NCBI GenBank assembly: GCA_005879585.1
Contig: VBKG01000312.1
Span: 4,400-68,399, forward strand
Source: Deltaproteobacteria bacterium
Lineage (GTDB): Bacteria; Desulfobacterota; Binatia; DP-6
Reading direction: 5' to 3'
Length of the DNA: 64,000 nucleotides
Shown here: positions 17,130-24,737 of the stretch, piece after piece
Layout of the letters: the number at the start of each line of letters is the position of its first letter
Position numbering within the stretch: the stretch's first letter is position 1
The notes under the pieces: model-generated
Databases searched by the model: none
The model's input: only the letters and a program-made list of their open reading frames with translations
What the model was told of the DNA's origin: nothing
Program-made: the position numbers and the translations under genes

Positions 17130-17801
17130 TCATCCCCTCTTTGGCCGCCCGTCCGCGACGATCAGCCCGTGTCGCTGCCAACCGATCCGGGCGAGCCAGG
17201 TATGCGCGACTGCGACAGGCCGCGGCCCGCTTTGGTCCGCCGACCGCGGCGGGCGCCAGCCGGCAAACCAGGGAGCTGAAGAGCATGGATCGATATCGGC
17301 TCCGGTGTGGCCGTGTCGCCGGAAGTTCAGCAGCACATAGGCGAGCGCGTTGTGCACCTCGCGGGGCGTCGCGAGCGCCCGGGCGTGATACCTGTCGTCC
17401 CAGACTCTTCCGCGCCGGCCGAGAGCGCGGTTTATCGCGTGGGCAAGGCGGATCGCCAGGCCGCGGACGCCGCTCGCGAGCGCCCGCGTGTGCTCGGCCT
17501 CGGCGATCAGATGGACGTGGTCGTCCTGGACTGAAAATTCGACGATCCGGAAGTCGGCGTGTGAGGAGACGGCGAGCGCGCGGCGGACGGATGGGAACAC
17601 CCGGTCGCACCGAAGGCAGCGGATGGCTGTGACCGCGCGCAGCGTCACGTGCACGGGATGGGTGGCGACATGCTGAGGCCGACCCCGATGCGGCACCCCA
17701 GGCCGGCGTCCGGGCGTCCGTTTCCGGCCGGCACCGGGGCGGCGCCCGCCCCACGTGCGGGCGAGGATCGCGAGAGTGAGTTGAGCGGGACGCCGGGCCA
17801 T
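17130..17801 (-). CDS. IS200/IS605-family Y1 (HuH) transposase, long form (COG1943 / RAYT-like)
   Basis: 223 aa; HuH motif DDHVHLIAEAEH and catalytic-Tyr region WDDRYHARAL; AT-rich promoter patch upstream. Confidence 0.8.
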   Translation of the reverse strand: MARRPAQLTLAILARTWGGRRPGAGRKRTPGRRPGVPHRGRPQHVATHPVHVTLRAVTAIRCLRCDRVFPSVRRALAVSSHADFRIVEFSVQDDHVHLIAEAEHTRALASGVRGLAIRLAHAINRALGRRGRVWDDRYHARALATPREVHNALAYVLLNFRRHGHTGADIDPCSSAPWFAGWRPPRSADQSGPRPVAVAHTWLARIGWQRHGLIVADGRPKRG

Positions 17802-18133: not shown

Positions 18134-19033
18134 CTACGACTTCCGGAACCGCGGCGGGCGCTTCTCTAAAAAGGCCTTGCGGCCTTCCTCGGCCTCTTCC
18201 GTCCCGTAGTAGAGCTCGAGCGCGCTGAAGCCGAGCTCGGTGATGCCGCCGAGCTGCTCCGTGTCCGCATTGAACGACTGCTTTGCGAGCCTGAGTGCCG
18301 TCGGGCTCTTCTCGAGGAGCTCGCGGCACCAGCGTTCCGTCTCGGTACGAAGTTGCGCGGCCGGGACGACGGCGTTGACGAGGCCCATCGCGAGCGCCTC
18401 CTGCGCCGTGTACTGCCGGCAGAGGTACCAGATCTCCCGCGCCTTCTTCTCGCCGACGATGCGCGCCAGGTACGCGGTGCCGAACCCCGGATCGACGCTG
18501 CCCACGCGTGGCCCGACCTGTCCGAAGATCGCCGTGTCGGCGGCAATCGACAGGTCGCACAGCACGTGGAGCACGTGACCGCCGCCGATCGCGAAGCCGT
18601 TGACCATCGCGATCACGGGCTTTGGAATCGCGCGGATCACTCCGTGAAGCCCGTGGACGTCCATGCCGAGGCCGCTGGCGCCGCCGTAGCCGCTCGTGCC
18701 GCGCTCGCGCTGGTCGCCGCCGGCGGAGAAGGCCTTGTCGCCCGCGCCGGTCAGCACGGCCACGCCGACCGCGCGATCGGCCCAGGCGGCGCGGAAGGCG
18801 CGGATCAGCTCGTCGACGGTCTGGGAACGAAACGCATTCCGCACGTCGGGGCGGTTGATCGTGATCCATGCGATCCCGTCGCGCGCGTCGTAGAGGATGT
18901 CTTCGAAGGTCACGCGCTTCCCTTCAGCCAGCCGTGGGCCCTTGTCAACACGGGGCGGCGAGCGCAAGGTGTCGCGACGACGATGCTCGAGACGGCGCTC
19001 CACGCGCACCTCGCGGCCCGCGGCGCGACCCAC
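18134..19033 (-). CDS. menB: 1,4-dihydroxy-2-naphthoyl-CoA synthase-like crotonase (MenB family)
   Basis: [26 protein letters not shown] is typical of MenB; maximal ORF given, true start probably internal (TTG 18967 or GTG 18913), which would leave a divergent promoter gap before the next gene. Confidence 0.8.
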
Positions 19034-20023
19034 GCGGACGACCGTGGCGTCCTCTTACCGCGTCAGTTCGGCGACGCCGCCGGCGAGTACCGAGCGCTCC
19101 GCGAAGGCGCGGCGCTCGTCGACCTCGGCTTCCGTACCGTGCTCCATGCACGCGGTGCCGACCGCGTGACGTTCCTCCAGGGTATGTTGTCCAACGACGT
19201 GGCGGCGCTCCGGCCCGGCGACGGGTGTCCGGCTCTGCTCCTCACCATCCAGGGACGCGTCGTCGCCGACGCGCGCGTGGCGGCGACCGACGACGCGCTG
19301 CTCCTCGACGTCGACGTGCGTGCCCGCGAGGCCTTCGTCGAGGCCCTCGAGCGCCTGATCGTCGCCGACGACGTCGAGCTGGTCACGCCCGAGACCAGGG
19401 TCGCGCTCGTCGGCGTCGAAGGGCCGGACGCGGAGCGCCTCGTCGGCCGGCCGCTCGCCCCGTATGCGCACGCCGAGACGGACGTCACCGGCATCGCGGT
19501 CCGTGCGGTGCGCGCGAGCGAGGTGCGCGGTTCCGGCGTTGTGTTTCACGTCGCCGCCGAACGAGCTCCTGCACTCTGGGACGCGCTCGTGGCGCGCGGC
19601 GCACGGCCATGTGGCATGGACGCGCTCGAGGGCCGCCGGGTGGAGGTCGGGGTGCCGCGGGTGGGGCTCGACATGGACCTCGGCACGCTCGCGCTCGAGG
19701 TGCCCGTCGACGAGGCGCTGAGCGCCACCAAGGGTTGCTATCTCGGCCAGGAGGTCGTGGCGCGCGGGACCGCGCGCGGCCACGTGAACCGCAAGCTCAC
19801 CGGCCTGCTGATCGACGGCCCGGTGCCGCCGGGCGGCGTGCCGCTCGTGCGCGAGGGGAAGGAAGCCGGCCGGCTCACGACGGTCGCGTGGGCTTTCGGC
19901 GCCGGCGCGCCCGCCGCTCTCGGGTTCGTCCGGCGGGAGCATTGGGAACCGGGGACGGAGCTGCGTGTCGAGCACGGCCATGCGGTGACCCTCGTCCGCG
20001 TCGCCGCGCTGCCACTCGCCTAG
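18983..20023 (+). CDS. GcvT-family folate-binding protein (YgfZ-like)
   Basis: 346 aa from ATG 18983; aminomethyltransferase fold with a C-terminal barrel. Confidence 0.75.
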
Positions 20024-20061
20024 GCTTCCCCGTCCGGCGGCTTTCTGGTACGGGACCGCCC

Positions 20062-20205
20062 ATGGCGATGCAGCTCGGCAAGCGGTACCTCTGCGACACC
20101 TGCGGCACGGAGGTCCTCTGCAACAAGCCGGGCGGGGGCGGCCTCACGTGCTGCGGTCACGAGATGAAGCTGAAGGAAGCGAAGCCGCTTCCGTCCTCCG
20201 ACTGA
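20062..20205 (+). CDS. Desulforedoxin-like mini-protein
   Basis: 47 aa; GKRYLCDTCGTEVLCNKPGGGGLTCCGHEM matches desulforedoxin [30 protein letters not shown]; hidden in the tail of a spurious long ORF. Confidence 0.7.
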   Translation: MAMQLGKRYLCDTCGTEVLCNKPGGGGLTCCGHEMKLKEAKPLPSSD

Positions 20206-20272
20206 CCGCCGCCGAGACGCTCGTCGAGAACGCACGGGTCGTGACGCTGACACTCGTCGGCGGCAGGGTGGC

Positions 20273-21004
20273 GTGGCCGGCATGAGGCCGTTCTCGACCC
20301 TTCGCTACGAGAAGCGGGGCGCGATCGCGATCGTGACCCTCGACCGACCCGCGAAGCTGAACGCGTACAACGTCGCCATGCGTGACGATCTCTACGAGGC
20401 GCTCGGCGCGGCGGACCAGGATCCGGACGTCCGCGCGCTCGTGCTGCGCGGTCGCGGGCGCGCTTTCTCCACGGGCGGCGACGTGAGCGAGTTCGGGACG
20501 GCGCCGTCTCCGCTCGTCGCGCGCTTCGTCCGCTGGCAGCGCGACGTGTGGGGCCGGCTCCTCGATCTCCGGGCGGCGACGATTGCGGCCGTCCACGGCT
20601 ACGCGGTCGGCGGGGGGATGGAGATGGCGCTCTGCTGCGATTTCTGCCTCGCAGCGGACGATGCGCGCTTCGCCCTGCCGGAGACCGGTCTCGGTATGAT
20701 CCCGGGCGTCGGGGGGACGCAGACGTTGCCCCGGCGAGCCGGTGTCGCGCGCGCTCTCGACCTCGTGCTGACGGGTCGGGGACTCGACGCAGAGGAGGCG
20801 CGCGCCGCGGGGATCGTGCTGCGCGTCGTTCCACGGGCGCGGCTCGACACGGCCGCACTGGCGCTCGCCCGCCGGCTGGCTCGTCTGGAGCCCGCCCTGG
20901 TCGCGGGTGTGCGACGTGCGGTGCGTGCGGCACACGACCTGGCGCTCGCGGACGGCCTCGACCTCGAACGACGGCTCGCCGCCGCAACTCGCCGCCGTAC
21001 TTGA
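20273..21004 (+). CDS. Enoyl-CoA hydratase/isomerase
   Basis: Crotonase fold (AVHGYAVGGGMEMALCCDF). Confidence 0.85.
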   Translation: MAGMRPFSTLRYEKRGAIAIVTLDRPAKLNAYNVAMRDDLYEALGAADQDPDVRALVLRGRGRAFSTGGDVSEFGTAPSPLVARFVRWQRDVWGRLLDLRAATIAAVHGYAVGGGMEMALCCDFCLAADDARFALPETGLGMIPGVGGTQTLPRRAGVARALDLVLTGRGLDAEEARAAGIVLRVVPRARLDTAALALARRLARLEPALVAGVRRAVRAAHDLALADGLDLERRLAAATRRRT

Positions 21005-21038
21005 GCGGCGGCGCGCGGCCGCGCTAGAAGCGCCGCCG

Positions 21039-22589
21039 ATGAACACGCTCGGCTTCCTCGCGATCCCGGCCGAGATCGTCCCCGACCAGGAGGCGGTGGT
21101 GACCGAGGGGGGCCGGTTCACGTACGCCGAGACGCTGTCGCGCGTGCGGCGCCTCGCGAGCGCGCTCGCGCGCCTCGGCGTTCGGCCGGGCACGCGCGTG
21201 GCGGTTCTCCACACCAATTCCCACCGTTACGTCGAGGCCTACTACGCCGCGGCGATGCTCGGCGCCGTCTTCATCCCACTCAACTACCGTGCGAAGCGCC
21301 CCGAGCTCGAGCACATGCTGCGCGCAGGCGGCGTCGAGTTGGTGCTCGTCGGCGCGCGTTATCTCGAGCATCTGGACGCCGTCCGCGGCGCTCTCCCGGC
21401 GCTCCGGACGGTCATCGGTCTCGACGGCCCGGCGGGGAGCCTGCCGGCCTACGAGGAGCTCGTCGCCGAGGCCGCGGAGCATGCGGGCGAGGCAGGCGTC
21501 GAGGACGACGACGTGACGATCCTCATGTTCACGAGCGGCACCACGGCACTGCCGAAGGGCGTCATGCTCACGTTCGGCGACTTCACGGCCTACGTGACCG
21601 CCAACGTCGAGCTGGCCGACGGGACGCCGCGCGGCGCGGCGCTCCTCTGCGTGCCGCTCTACCACATCGCCGGCGCGACCAACATGATGACGACGCTCTG
21701 GACGGGCCGCCGCCTCGTGCTCATGCCGCAGTTCGAGCCCCGGGGCTGGCTCGACCTCGTCGAGCGCGAGCGCATCAGCCACGCGTTCCTCGTCCCGACG
21801 ATGCTGAAGCAGCTGCTCGACCAGCCGGATCTCGAGCGCCGCGATCTTTCGAGCCTGGAGATCCTCTCGTACGGCGGAGCCGCCATGCCGTTCCCGGTCA
21901 TCCGGCGCGCGATCGAGCGCTTTCCGAAGACCGTCGGCTTCGTGAATGCGTTCGGCCAGACGGAGACCACCTCGACGCTCACGCTCCTCGGCCCCGAGGA
22001 TCATCGGCTCGAGGGCACGGCAGAGGAGATCGAGCGGCGCACGCGCCGGCTCACGTCGATCGGCCGTCCGCTGCCCGACGTCGAAGTGCGGATCGCGGAC
22101 GACGACGGGCACGCGCGCGGTGCCGGAGAGGTCGGCGAGATCTGGGTACGGACGCCGCGTGTGATGAAGGGCTACGCCGGCGCTGGAGGTTCACCGCTCG
22201 TCGCGGACGGATGGCTGCCGACGCGCGACATGGGCTGGGTGGACGAGGACGGCTATCTCTACGTCGCCGGGCGCAAGGACGACATGATCATCCGCGGCGG
22301 GGAGAACATCGCGCCGGCGGAGGTCGAGGCCGTCCTGCAGTCGCATCCGGCGGTCGAGGAAGCGGCCGTCGTCGGCGTGCCGGACGTCGAGTGGGGCCAG
22401 CGGGTGGCCGCGTTCGTCGTCGTGCGCCCGGGCGCTTCCCTGTCGCCCGACGCGCTCACGGACTTCTGCCGCGAGCGGCTCGCGAGCTTCAAGAAGCCCG
22501 AGCTCGTCCGCTTCGTCACCGAGCTGCCGAAGAACCCGATGGGAAAGATCCTCCGCAAGGACCTGCGCGCGGAGCTCGGCGCCGCGTGA
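21039..22589 (+). CDS. AMP-dependent acyl-CoA synthetase/ligase (possibly MenE-like)
   Basis: AMP-binding motif FTSGTTALPKGV; 516 aa. Confidence 0.9.
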   Translation: MNTLGFLAIPAEIVPDQEAVVTEGGRFTYAETLSRVRRLASALARLGVRPGTRVAVLHTNSHRYVEAYYAAAMLGAVFIPLNYRAKRPELEHMLRAGGVELVLVGARYLEHLDAVRGALPALRTVIGLDGPAGSLPAYEELVAEAAEHAGEAGVEDDDVTILMFTSGTTALPKGVMLTFGDFTAYVTANVELADGTPRGAALLCVPLYHIAGATNMMTTLWTGRRLVLMPQFEPRGWLDLVERERISHAFLVPTMLKQLLDQPDLERRDLSSLEILSYGGAAMPFPVIRRAIERFPKTVGFVNAFGQTETTSTLTLLGPEDHRLEGTAEEIERRTRRLTSIGRPLPDVEVRIADDDGHARGAGEVGEIWVRTPRVMKGYAGAGGSPLVADGWLPTRDMGWVDEDGYLYVAGRKDDMIIRGGENIAPAEVEAVLQSHPAVEEAAVVGVPDVEWGQRVAAFVVVRPGASLSPDALTDFCRERLASFKKPELVRFVTELPKNPMGKILRKDLRAELGAA

Positions 22590-23353
22590 CGAGAGCGCTG
22601 CGCGCAGAGGACGCCGTCGAGGTCGTCGTGCGCGACGGGGTGGCGTGGATGACGCTCGCGCGTCCCGCCACGGGGAACCGCCTCGATGCCGAGCTGCTCG
22701 GTGCGCTCGCCGACGCGTGCGTCGCCGTCGAGGACGACGATCGCGTCCGCGTGGTCGTGCTTGGTGCCCGCGGCCGGGTGTTCTCGGGAGGCTTGCCCGA
22801 CGGCTGTGCGTGGCCGGACCCGGCGTGGCCCGACGGCATCGGCGCGATGGCGGCGGTCACGAAGCCCGTCTTGGGATCGATCGGCGGGGACGCCGTCGGC
22901 TGGGGGTTCGCGCTCGCGCTCGCATGCGACGTGCGCATCGCCGCCACGACGGCCACGTTTGCGTTCACCGACGTCGAGCGCGGCCATCCGCCTGGAGGCG
23001 GCATCACGCAGCGTCTCACGCGGATGGTGGGACCCGCGCGGGCCCTCGACCTCGTTCTCCTCGGGACGCCGCTGCCGGCGCGGCGCGCCGCCGCGTGGGG
23101 CGTCGTCGCCGCGACGGTCGAGCCCCGGCGGCTCGATGCCGCAGTCGAGGCGACGGCCCGAGCGCTGGCGAGCCGCGCGCCGCTGGCGCTGCGGCTCGGC
23201 AAGGAGGCGGTCGTGCGCGCCCTTGATCTTCCCCTCGCGGAAGGCATCAGGTTGGAGCAGGACCTGTACGTGCTATTGCAGACGACCGCGGACCGTCGCG
23301 AGGGCATCACGGCCTTCCGGACGCGCCGCGGCGCGCGATTCCGGGGCCGGTAG
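22586..23353 (+). CDS. Enoyl-CoA hydratase/isomerase family protein
   Basis: GTG 22586 overlaps the ligase TGA (GTGA); crotonase fold. Confidence 0.8.
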   Translation: MTRALRAEDAVEVVVRDGVAWMTLARPATGNRLDAELLGALADACVAVEDDDRVRVVVLGARGRVFSGGLPDGCAWPDPAWPDGIGAMAAVTKPVLGSIGGDAVGWGFALALACDVRIAATTATFAFTDVERGHPPGGGITQRLTRMVGPARALDLVLLGTPLPARRAAAWGVVAATVEPRRLDAAVEATARALASRAPLALRLGKEAVVRALDLPLAEGIRLEQDLYVLLQTTADRREGITAFRTRRGARFRGR

Positions 23354-23367
23354 GAGGACGACAGGAC

Positions 23368-23487
23368 ATGCCGAATCAGATCGGGAAGATCTATATCTGC
23401 ACGCAGTGCGGCGCGCAGGTGATCGTGACCAAGGGTGGGGCCGGGACGATCAGCTGTTGCGGGACCGAGATGCAGCAGAAGAAGTGA
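23368..23487 (+). CDS. Desulforedoxin-like mini-protein (second paralog)
   Basis: 39 aa MPNQIGKIYICTQCGAQVIVTKGGAGTISCCGTEMQQKK; RBS TAGGAGGACG; absent from the ORF track. Confidence 0.7.
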   Translation: MPNQIGKIYICTQCGAQVIVTKGGAGTISCCGTEMQQKK

Positions 23488-23500
23488 CGGAGGACGTCGT

Positions 23501-24001
23501 ATGAATCCGATCGCTGTGTATCCCGGGTCCTTCGACCCGATCACGAACGGCCACGTCGACATCGTCCGCAGGAGCCTGCAGGTGTTCGACCAGGTGATCG
23601 TCGCCGTCGCCTTCAACGCGCAGAAGGACTCGGCCTGGTTCACGCCGGAGGAACGGACGGACATGATCCGGGACACGTTCCGGGGCGACGGCAAGCGCGT
23701 CGTGGCGGACGCGTTCTCCACGTTGCTCGTCGACTACGTGTCGTCGAAGGGTGCGGGCGTGATCATCCGCGGTCTCCGTGCGGTCGCGGACTTCGAGTAC
23801 GAGTTTCAGATGACGATGATGAACCGCCATCTGCGGCCGCAGGTCGAGACCATCTTCATGATGACCGGAGAATCGCACTTCTACACGAGTTCGCGTCTCG
23901 TGAAGGAAGTGGTGAGCCTCGGCGGTAACGTCGCCGGTCTCATCCCCGACGCGGTGCTCCCCCGGCTCGTCGAGCGCGCCGCACGCTTCCGGTCGCGGTG
24001 A
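23501..24001 (+). CDS. coaD: Phosphopantetheine adenylyltransferase
   Basis: 166 aa; AVYPGSFDPITNGH nucleotidyltransferase motif; RBS GGAGGA. Confidence 0.9.
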   Translation: MNPIAVYPGSFDPITNGHVDIVRRSLQVFDQVIVAVAFNAQKDSAWFTPEERTDMIRDTFRGDGKRVVADAFSTLLVDYVSSKGAGVIIRGLRAVADFEYEFQMTMMNRHLRPQVETIFMMTGESHFYTSSRLVKEVVSLGGNVAGLIPDAVLPRLVERAARFRSR

Positions 24002-24494: not shown

Positions 24495-24737
24495 TTACTT
24501 GCGAATGTGCTTCGAGAACATCCGATCCGCCTTCTCGGCGGCTGCTTCGGCGCGCTGCGCTGCCGCCTCGACGCGGCTCGCGGCCGACTCCGCCCGGCGC
24601 GCGGCATCCTCGGCACGGGCCGCCGCCTGCTCAGCTCGGGTGGCCGTCCCGGTGTCCTCCTTCTTCGCGCAGCCGGCAGAAAGCATGGTGAGCACCATCA
24701 AGCTCGCTACGCTGGCACCAATAGTCTGTAACCGCAT
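24495..24737 (-). CDS. Small alanine-rich lipoprotein (Lpp-like)
   Basis: 80 aa; signal peptide plus lipobox LSAGC; RBS GGAGGTGAGCGG. Confidence 0.6.
   Translation of the reverse strand: MRLQTIGASVASLMVLTMLSAGCAKKEDTGTATRAEQAAARAEDAARRAESAASRVEAAAQRAEAAAEKADRMFSKHIRK

Follow-up and report, generated by a model that had tools for sequence, protein, structure and literature searches.

What two desulforedoxin-like proteins of fewer than 50 amino acids do in a cluster of acyl-CoA enzymes is the question raised by a 64,000-nucleotide stretch of contig VBKG01000312.1 (the window; GC content 71.5%). A preliminary description of the window reported the desulforedoxin signature in two open reading frames (ORFs), here named DxA and DxB, and proposed an anaerobic electron-transfer role for them. 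The signature holds, since translations, cysteine spacing, the PF06397 match, the structural database match and the predicted fold all agree, and DxA and DxB are genuine paralogous desulforedoxin-family mini-proteins by sequence, cysteine spacing and predicted fold. The role that is tentatively favored here is a different one: the two proteins may form a paired structural-metal accessory of the ligase, crotonases and amidohydrolase encoded by a conserved gene cluster, with the C-terminal tail of DxA as the functional contact, a reading considered plausible if somewhat short of probable. The two genes and the translation signal of the second are located as follows.

20062-20205, + strand: DxA (ORF A), 47 aa, product MAMQLGKRYLCDTCGTEVLCNKPGGGGLTCCGHEMKLKEAKPLPSSD; desulforedoxin fold with C11/C14/C30/C31, the additional C20 and the tail KEAKPLPSSD
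23368-23487, + strand: DxB (ORF B), 39 aa, product MPNQIGKIYICTQCGAQVIVTKGGAGTISCCGTEMQQKK; desulforedoxin fold with C11/C14/C30/C31, without the tail
23352-23357, + strand: Shine-Dalgarno sequence AGGAGG of DxB, overlapping the stop codon of the upstream crotonase gene ECH2

DxA occupies the 3' end (47 codons) of an open frame of 445 aa (18868-20205), the upstream part of which is Arg/Pro-rich and runs out of frame over a real YgfZ-like gene; the earlier view that this long frame is spurious is upheld. DxB is preceded, 10 nt 5' of its ATG, by TAGGAGGA, in which the TAG is the stop codon of the upstream enoyl-CoA hydratase (ECH) gene, and the AGGAGG within it is the strong ribosome-binding site that had been attributed to the shorter gene. 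Across all six reading frames of the window, C-x2-C-x15-C-C is present only in DxA and DxB, once in each, compared with a mean of 0.01 and a maximum of 1 in 100 dinucleotide-preserving shuffles. Both mini-genes are thereby confirmed as real and not as chance motif matches.

The two proteins share 46% identity over 39 residues in a gap-free alignment, and both pass the gathering score of the Pfam family PF06397 (Desulfoferrod_N; 28.1 bits for DxA and 35.2 bits for DxB vs 23) while both remain below the cutoff of the stricter NCBIfam domain model TIGR00319 (19.0 and 29.4 vs 36.05). The top sequence match of both in the PDB is the desulforedoxin of D. gigas (1cfw/1dxg), aligned without gaps and with the four cysteines in register, and the predicted folds of the mini-proteins superpose on desulforedoxin at 1.1-1.3 Å, which places them in the desulforedoxin fold. 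Like desulforedoxin they fall into a length class of 36-47 aa, have the identical C-x2-C-x15-C-C spacing and share the motifs Y-x-C-x2-C-G and G-G-G / C-C-G-x-x-M. The four cysteines are invariant in the aligned homologues of both families (20 and 23 sequences).

The differences from desulforedoxin are equally clear. DxA is extended by an invariant C-terminal tail of 10 residues and has one more invariant cysteine, desulforedoxin is acidic (isoelectric point, pI, 4.25) whereas the pI values of DxA (7.6) and DxB (8.9) are neutral to basic, and desulforedoxin is a homodimer (1dxg structure) whereas DxA and DxB are two paralogs encoded in one operon and are also found as B-A fusions. Furthermore, DxA and DxB belong to an acyl-CoA ligase/crotonase cluster of aerobic Binatia and have sister branches without metal ligands. 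The fifth cysteine, a non-ligand residue, is C20 in the sequence VLCNK (window positions 20119-20121) and is invariant in 63 DxA homologues; the tail KEAKPLPSSD is almost invariant among homologues. This tail is the most distinctive trait of DxA and had been passed over in the preliminary description. Other small metal-binding families fit less well. The N-terminal domain of desulfoferrodoxin (the 2Fe superoxide reductase; 1dfx, 1vzg) belongs to the same Pfam family and has the same cysteine pattern but gives weaker PDB matches (E 0.002-0.28), and desulfoferrodoxin carries a C-terminal superoxide reductase domain that DxA and DxB lack (TIGR00320: 24.5 and 25.9 bits vs 146.9, matching profile positions 5-40 only). 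Rubredoxin is a marginal match (E 0.84): the second cysteine pair is an adjacent C-C and neither protein matches the Pfam rubredoxin family.

A metagenome search returned 112 clusters of DxA homologues, mostly of exactly 47 aa (70-98% identity), and 50 clusters of DxB homologues of 38-39 aa (68-97% identity; one probably frameshifted; the query was ORF B plus one extra in-frame residue). Most of these clusters carry a precomputed PF06397 assignment, a few the JGI name "desulfoferrodoxin-like iron-binding protein", and many are named "hypothetical". In a scan of one genome per species, DxA relatives were found in at least 558 genomes, and the best 80 of the DxA-bearing genomes are almost all Candidatus Binatia or Binataceae, or metagenome-assembled genomes labelled "delta proteobacterium". 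The window is 72-78% identical at the nucleotide level to its nearest relatives among these genomes, which identifies it as part of a Binatia genome. The Binatia are an uncultured class of globally distributed bacteria that reportedly degrade alkanes and fatty acids, and an aerobic respiratory chain is reported to be encoded in all Binatota genomes (PMC8262859); the earlier statement that such a protein is otherwise typical of sulfate reducers does not fit this distribution. Nonsynonymous substitution rates are far below synonymous rates (dN/dS = 0.038/0.177, 0.052/0.378, and 0.067/0.679 in three DxA comparisons; 0.100/0.736 for DxB against locus L012), so that both genes are under purifying selection. 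Across loci DxA retains 72-94% and DxB 59-82% identity, compared with 35-81% for the YgfZ-like protein and 37-67% for ECH2, and DxA is more conserved than the enzymes of the cluster. The doubt originally attached to the two small genes, that they or their four cysteines might be missing from related genomes, is thereby removed.

The genes that accompany DxA and DxB in the window are the following.

18983-20023, + strand: YgfZ/CAF17-like folate-binding protein (ATG at 18983; GCV_T fold with KGCYLGQE; Pfam GCV_T, GCV_T_C and CAF17 barrel)
20206-20285, + strand: deletion remnant of an Amidohydro_3 gene, 80 nt in frame between DxA and ECH1
20282-21004, + strand: ECH1 crotonase (Pfam ECH_1, 1e-56), both catalytic Glu intact
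21039-22589, + strand: AMP-forming acyl-CoA ligase of the ANL superfamily (Pfam AMP-binding and AMP-binding_C)
22586-23353, + strand: ECH2, a divergent crotonase with a GTG start that overlaps the ligase stop (GTGA)
23501-24001, + strand: coaD, pantetheine-phosphate adenylyltransferase (TIGR01510, 179.9 vs 103.3)

Genes of the cluster are separated by 13-38 nt or overlap by 4 nt, no promoter- or terminator-like sites were found on the + strand inside the cluster, and the Rfam and tRNA searches gave no matches. Synteny was assessed by calling genes on other contigs and by surveying 80 Binatia loci with tblastn. The conserved order is YgfZ-like gene, DxA, [amidohydrolase], ECH1, acyl-CoA ligase, ECH2, DxB: the YgfZ-like gene adjoins DxA upstream in 76 of 79 Binatia loci, and ECH1, the ligase and DxB are each found downstream of DxA in 59 of 61, with DxB placed after ECH2. 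An Amidohydro_3 gene lies directly 3' of DxA in 47 of the 61 loci and overlaps the DxA stop codon in L009. The region 3' of DxB varies (rsmD-coaD, PhyH and a flavoprotein, or Transgly_assoc), and coaD lies within 9.5 kb of DxA in just 11 of 61 loci, all in one subclade; coaD is probably co-transcribed with the cluster in the window, but it is outside the conserved module. The shared gene order therefore places the two mini-genes at the borders of a single conserved module, with an incidental coaD adjacency, and the initial picture, in which each mini-gene closed a separate CoA-related gene set, does not stand.

The enzymes of the module match only generic or uncharacterized NCBIfam and PDB entries. 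The ligase resembles feruloyl- and fatty-acyl-CoA synthetases, FadD5, FadD13, and MenE, and scores 474.5 against the 476 cutoff of NF004837. The amidohydrolase of relatives resembles the entries 3icj and 3igh ("uncharacterized metal-dependent hydrolase"), and both crotonases resemble ordinary enoyl-CoA hydratases. The YgfZ-like protein passes the NCBIfam model TIGR03317 (CAF17_like_YgfZ; 57.2 vs 49). All 80 loci retain the Glu of GGGxE and the Glu of PE in ECH1. In most Binatia orthologues of ECH2 the first Glu is retained and the second position is Gln; in the subclade of the window both catalytic acids are replaced (by Ala and Asp), so that ECH2 may be non-catalytic there; judged from these residues, the two proteins suggest a pair of one catalytic and one non-catalytic crotonase.

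The 80 nt between DxA and ECH1 read ETLVENARVV joined to TLTLVGGRVAWPA and a stop codon, an amidohydrolase N-terminus fused in frame to a C-terminus, as seen by comparison with the amidohydrolase termini of L009, L014, L025, and L026. About 12 N-terminal and about 13 C-terminal codons are left of an Amidohydro_3 gene of about 1.4 kb, and the stop codon of the remnant still overlaps the ECH1 ATG as ATGA. The segment is a clean in-frame deletion scar. Larger remnants are present in L018 and L028, and L012 and L022 have lost the gene completely.

A profile of DxA was searched against 1.84 billion representative proteins and matched 1082 of them at E ≤ 1e-3, including 185 at E ≤ 1e-10. Many of the matches are proteins of about 100 aa with two desulforedoxin-like domains, which represent a B-A tandem in other phyla. 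In these fusions the DxA profile is always by far the better fit to the C-terminal half, which bears the tail, and the DxB profile is usually the better fit to the N-terminal half (e.g., protein P0163: 63.1 with the B profile vs 49.9 with the A profile for the N-terminal half, 77.7 with A vs 38.7 with B for the C-terminal half). The domain order is reversed in one protein (P0173). The fusions constitute Rosetta-stone evidence that DxA and DxB act together, and because such fusions exist and desulforedoxin itself is a homodimer, they suggest a DxA:DxB heterodimer as the natural reading. The tail motif [KR]-x-[LI]-P-[SA]-[SA]-D is found at the extreme C-terminus of about 115 of 146 representatives. 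A distant relative (P0281) consists of the tandem fused to a 2Fe-2S ferredoxin domain.

About 25 tandem representatives contain no CxxC or CC at all. When one of these (P0256) was used as seed, at least 1198 clusters (90% identity, about 103 aa) were obtained, none with a precomputed Pfam domain and every named one "hypothetical"; two members that were tested matched no NCBIfam family. The tail KEAKPLPSSD, GKRY, and LLC-T-K-P-G-x-G are invariant in the alignment of this family. Most of the metal cysteines have been lost and the predicted desulforedoxin fold is retained, so the metal ligands are dispensable in this sister branch. A profile search of the tandem protein against the PDB gave no match and Foldseek returned nothing below E = 1; the P0256 family is a candidate new domain family. 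Three cysteines are kept (C15, C33, and C77), two of them in domain 1 and one, the "fifth" cysteine, in domain 2. A remodelled inter-domain metal site and a reactive thiol are candidate readings for C20 and the two domain-1 cysteines of this branch.

The association with the enzymes extends beyond the Binatia. On three long contigs, L095 (annotated as Myxococcota), L097, and L099, a Cys-less tandem is followed by an AMP-binding ligase and then by an ECH gene. The ligases are about 40% identical to the window ligase over their full length and the ECH core is 40-46% identical to ECH1; in L095, Amidohydro_3 and CoA_transf_3 genes are found divergently upstream. The all-Cys tandem P0164 follows an ECH2-like and an ECH1-like gene, and the ferredoxin-tandem fusion P0281 precedes an ECH gene. 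A different neighborhood was found for the all-Cys branch of P0163, in which no ECH or ligase gene is nearby in 80 metagenome loci: an Amidohydro_3 gene starts less than 900 nt downstream in 13 of 47 loci, the order tandem-MnmG-Amidohydro_3 is present in at least two more, and the other neighbors are a cytochrome c-cupredoxin protein and housekeeping genes. The ECH partners of the Cys-less branch (L095 8862-9872, L097 8950-9870, and L099 8845-9855; 306-336 aa) have an N-terminal extension of about 150 aa, and their crotonase core matches just the first ~180 of ~257 profile positions; they are possibly a rearranged or fused ECH2-ECH1.

These observations lead to the accessory reading introduced above. 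DxA and DxB would each bind one metal ion through four cysteines, with a mainly structural role of the metal, and would act as a pair, probably a heterodimer resembling the desulforedoxin homodimer. As an accessory module without catalytic activity, the pair would be dedicated to the enzymes whose genes lie between or next to its own, namely the AMP-forming acyl-CoA ligase, the two crotonases and, ancestrally, the YtcJ-like amidohydrolase. The flexible, near-invariant tail of DxA (K-E-A-K-P-L-P-S-S-D-COOH) would dock into one of these partner enzymes. The loss of the cysteines from a sister branch that keeps fold and tail indicates that the conserved element is the tail and the fold and not a redox center.

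Several points weigh against this reading. Heterodimer formation, tail docking, and the structural role of the metal are steps that we infer. Two contexts of tailed relatives are away from any ligase, ECH or amidohydrolase gene, which implies that the partner of the tail may be encoded outside the cluster: a single-domain relative in L004 (6001-6141) lies 6 nt upstream of a ZnuC/ZnuB-like ABC transporter with flanking CDF exporters, and a lone single-domain gene in L103/L104 (7001-7144), in which C-H replaces C-C, lies between the genes for MTHFR and lipoyl synthase. Both contexts may be signs that part of the family has to do with metals or with folate/Fe-S functions. Furthermore, all four cysteines are invariant in both Binatia proteins, which leaves room for a redox or metal-delivery role in this lineage, and a purely structural role does not account for the invariant C20 of DxA.

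Among the alternatives, the one that survives best, although it is considered unlikely, is that DxA might be a carrier or scaffold: the ANL ligase would load a substrate onto the C-terminal Asp or tail of DxA, or onto C20, the crotonases would modify it and the YtcJ-like amidohydrolase would release it. Such a function would suit a small metal-ribbon domain that ends in a flexible tail with an invariant last residue, and it would fit the recurrent neighbors with activities for attachment (the adenylate-forming ligase) and release (the amide hydrolase) and the invariant non-ligand cysteine that is retained even in the Cys-less branch. The logic is that of the amino-group carrier LysW, a small metal-ribbon domain with a flexible conserved tail, a ligase and a releasing hydrolase, and LysW is a weak zinc-ribbon match to DxB (E 0.19). 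The likeness ends there. LysW belongs to another fold family and its acidic tail carries EDWGE and is served by a LysX-type ATP-grasp ligase, whereas DxA ends in KPLPSSD and the cluster (GCV_T, Amidohydro_3, ECH, AMP-binding, ECH) contains no ATP-grasp enzyme, so that every feature that defines LysW is missing. The window lineage has deleted the amidohydrolase with DxA unchanged, and the tail is kept where no ligase is nearby. In addition, crotonases normally require CoA or pantetheine thioesters, and ANL enzymes are not known to act on the C-terminus of a protein. A comparison can also be made with the MbtH-like proteins, which are small obligate partners of ANL-superfamily adenylation domains. 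Unlike these, DxA and DxB have a metal-ribbon fold and a tail motif and also have crotonases and an amidohydrolase among their neighbors, and neither protein matches the MbtH-like signature PF03621.

A redox role, in which DxA and/or DxB would hold a desulforedoxin-like redox-active Fe(Cys)4 center and supply electrons for a cluster-linked reaction, is judged less probable still. The invariance and the exact desulforedoxin spacing of the cysteines in the Binatia proteins are what such a center would need, the ferredoxin domain of P0281 points in the same direction, and a cytochrome c-cupredoxin gene, or PhyH together with a flavoprotein disulfide reductase, adjoins in some loci. However, neither reading of the contigs nor the 80-locus survey found an oxidoreductase that is conserved in the cluster, and large sister branches without the ligands keep the fold, the tail and the ligase/crotonase neighbors. 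The neutral to basic proteins also differ from acidic desulforedoxin and score below the TIGR00319 cutoff. As the lineage is moreover aerobic (PMC8262859), the anaerobic electron-transfer role first proposed is not borne out.

An improbable alternative is a metal chaperone or Fe-S maintenance factor that would deliver or buffer Fe or Zn, for example together with the adjacent YgfZ/CAF17-like Fe-S cluster factor. The near-constant adjacency of the YgfZ gene and its match to the YgfZ signature domain speak for such a link, as do the relatives beside CDF exporters and the ZnuCB-like transporter and beside lipoyl synthase and MTHFR. The YgfZ gene is displaced in L013, L016, and L027, though, where DxA stays with the amidohydrolase/ECH/ligase block. 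It is also absent from the ligase/ECH or amidohydrolase contexts of the other branches, and this mode of metal binding is not open to the Cys-less relatives. A role as zinc-ribbon regulators of operon expression through binding of RNA or DNA is very improbable, as the matches in its support reflect nothing more specific than a knuckle fold, Rfam revealed no conserved RNA element, and an invariant tail and enzyme-linked synteny across phyla are atypical of such regulators.

Four assignments to known contexts were considered and not adopted. An association with coaD is rejected because of its restriction to one subclade. Dimethylsulfoniopropionate demethylation (DmdA/B/D-like) fails because the GCV_T protein scores 46 against 410 bits for DmdA and carries the YgfZ signature instead. 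In the case of a MenE/MenB pathway the ligase is below the MenE cutoffs (295 vs 330; 321 vs 748), ECH1 and ECH2 are generic crotonases, and the adjacency of menB is not conserved. A carnitine CaiBCD-like arrangement was seen in L095 only.

The mini-genes have already been called and Pfam-tagged in public metagenome annotations and hence are not undiscovered. In the literature, no description was found of the tail, the A/B pairing or fusion, the Cys-less branch or the linkage to ligases, crotonases, and amidohydrolases, nor anything that joins desulforedoxin and Binatia or concerns PLPSSD; the "desulforedoxin-like" literature that was found deals with oxidative stress in C. difficile only. Proteins of less than 50 aa are routinely missed or left "hypothetical", and here, in hundreds of Binatia genomes, such a pair is conserved better than any other part of a seven-gene cluster. 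The module of fold and tail recurs, fused and even metal-free, beside orthologous ligases, crotonases, and amidohydrolases in other phyla. Such recurrence points to a small protein, not described so far, that adenylate-forming and crotonase enzymes need as a partner or carrier, and it shows the desulforedoxin fold in use outside anaerobic redox chemistry. If confirmed, this partner or carrier would offer a way into the function of a widespread and unannotated Binatia cluster and would define a new domain family; a carrier function would mean that unrelated parts have been assembled, across several bacterial phyla, into a strategy like that of LysW or pearlin.

On the - strand of the window, a MenB-type 1,4-dihydroxy-2-naphthoyl-CoA synthase gene (18134-18913; NF005637 381 vs 380, TIGR01929 348 vs 343) is divergent from the YgfZ-like gene, the likely start codons being only about 69 nt apart, an adjacency kept in the closest relatives only. 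Just beyond menB, an ORF on the - strand (17130-17801) shows a weak match to the Y1 transposase domain of the IS200-like type (PF01797, 28.9 bits vs 23) and is possibly a RAYT/REP-associated transposase. On the other side of the cluster, the - strand encodes a small lipoprotein (24495-24731) with an alanine-zipper domain (PF11839, Lpp-like major outer-membrane lipoprotein), and its gene is followed by a terminator-like hairpin at 24465-24444.

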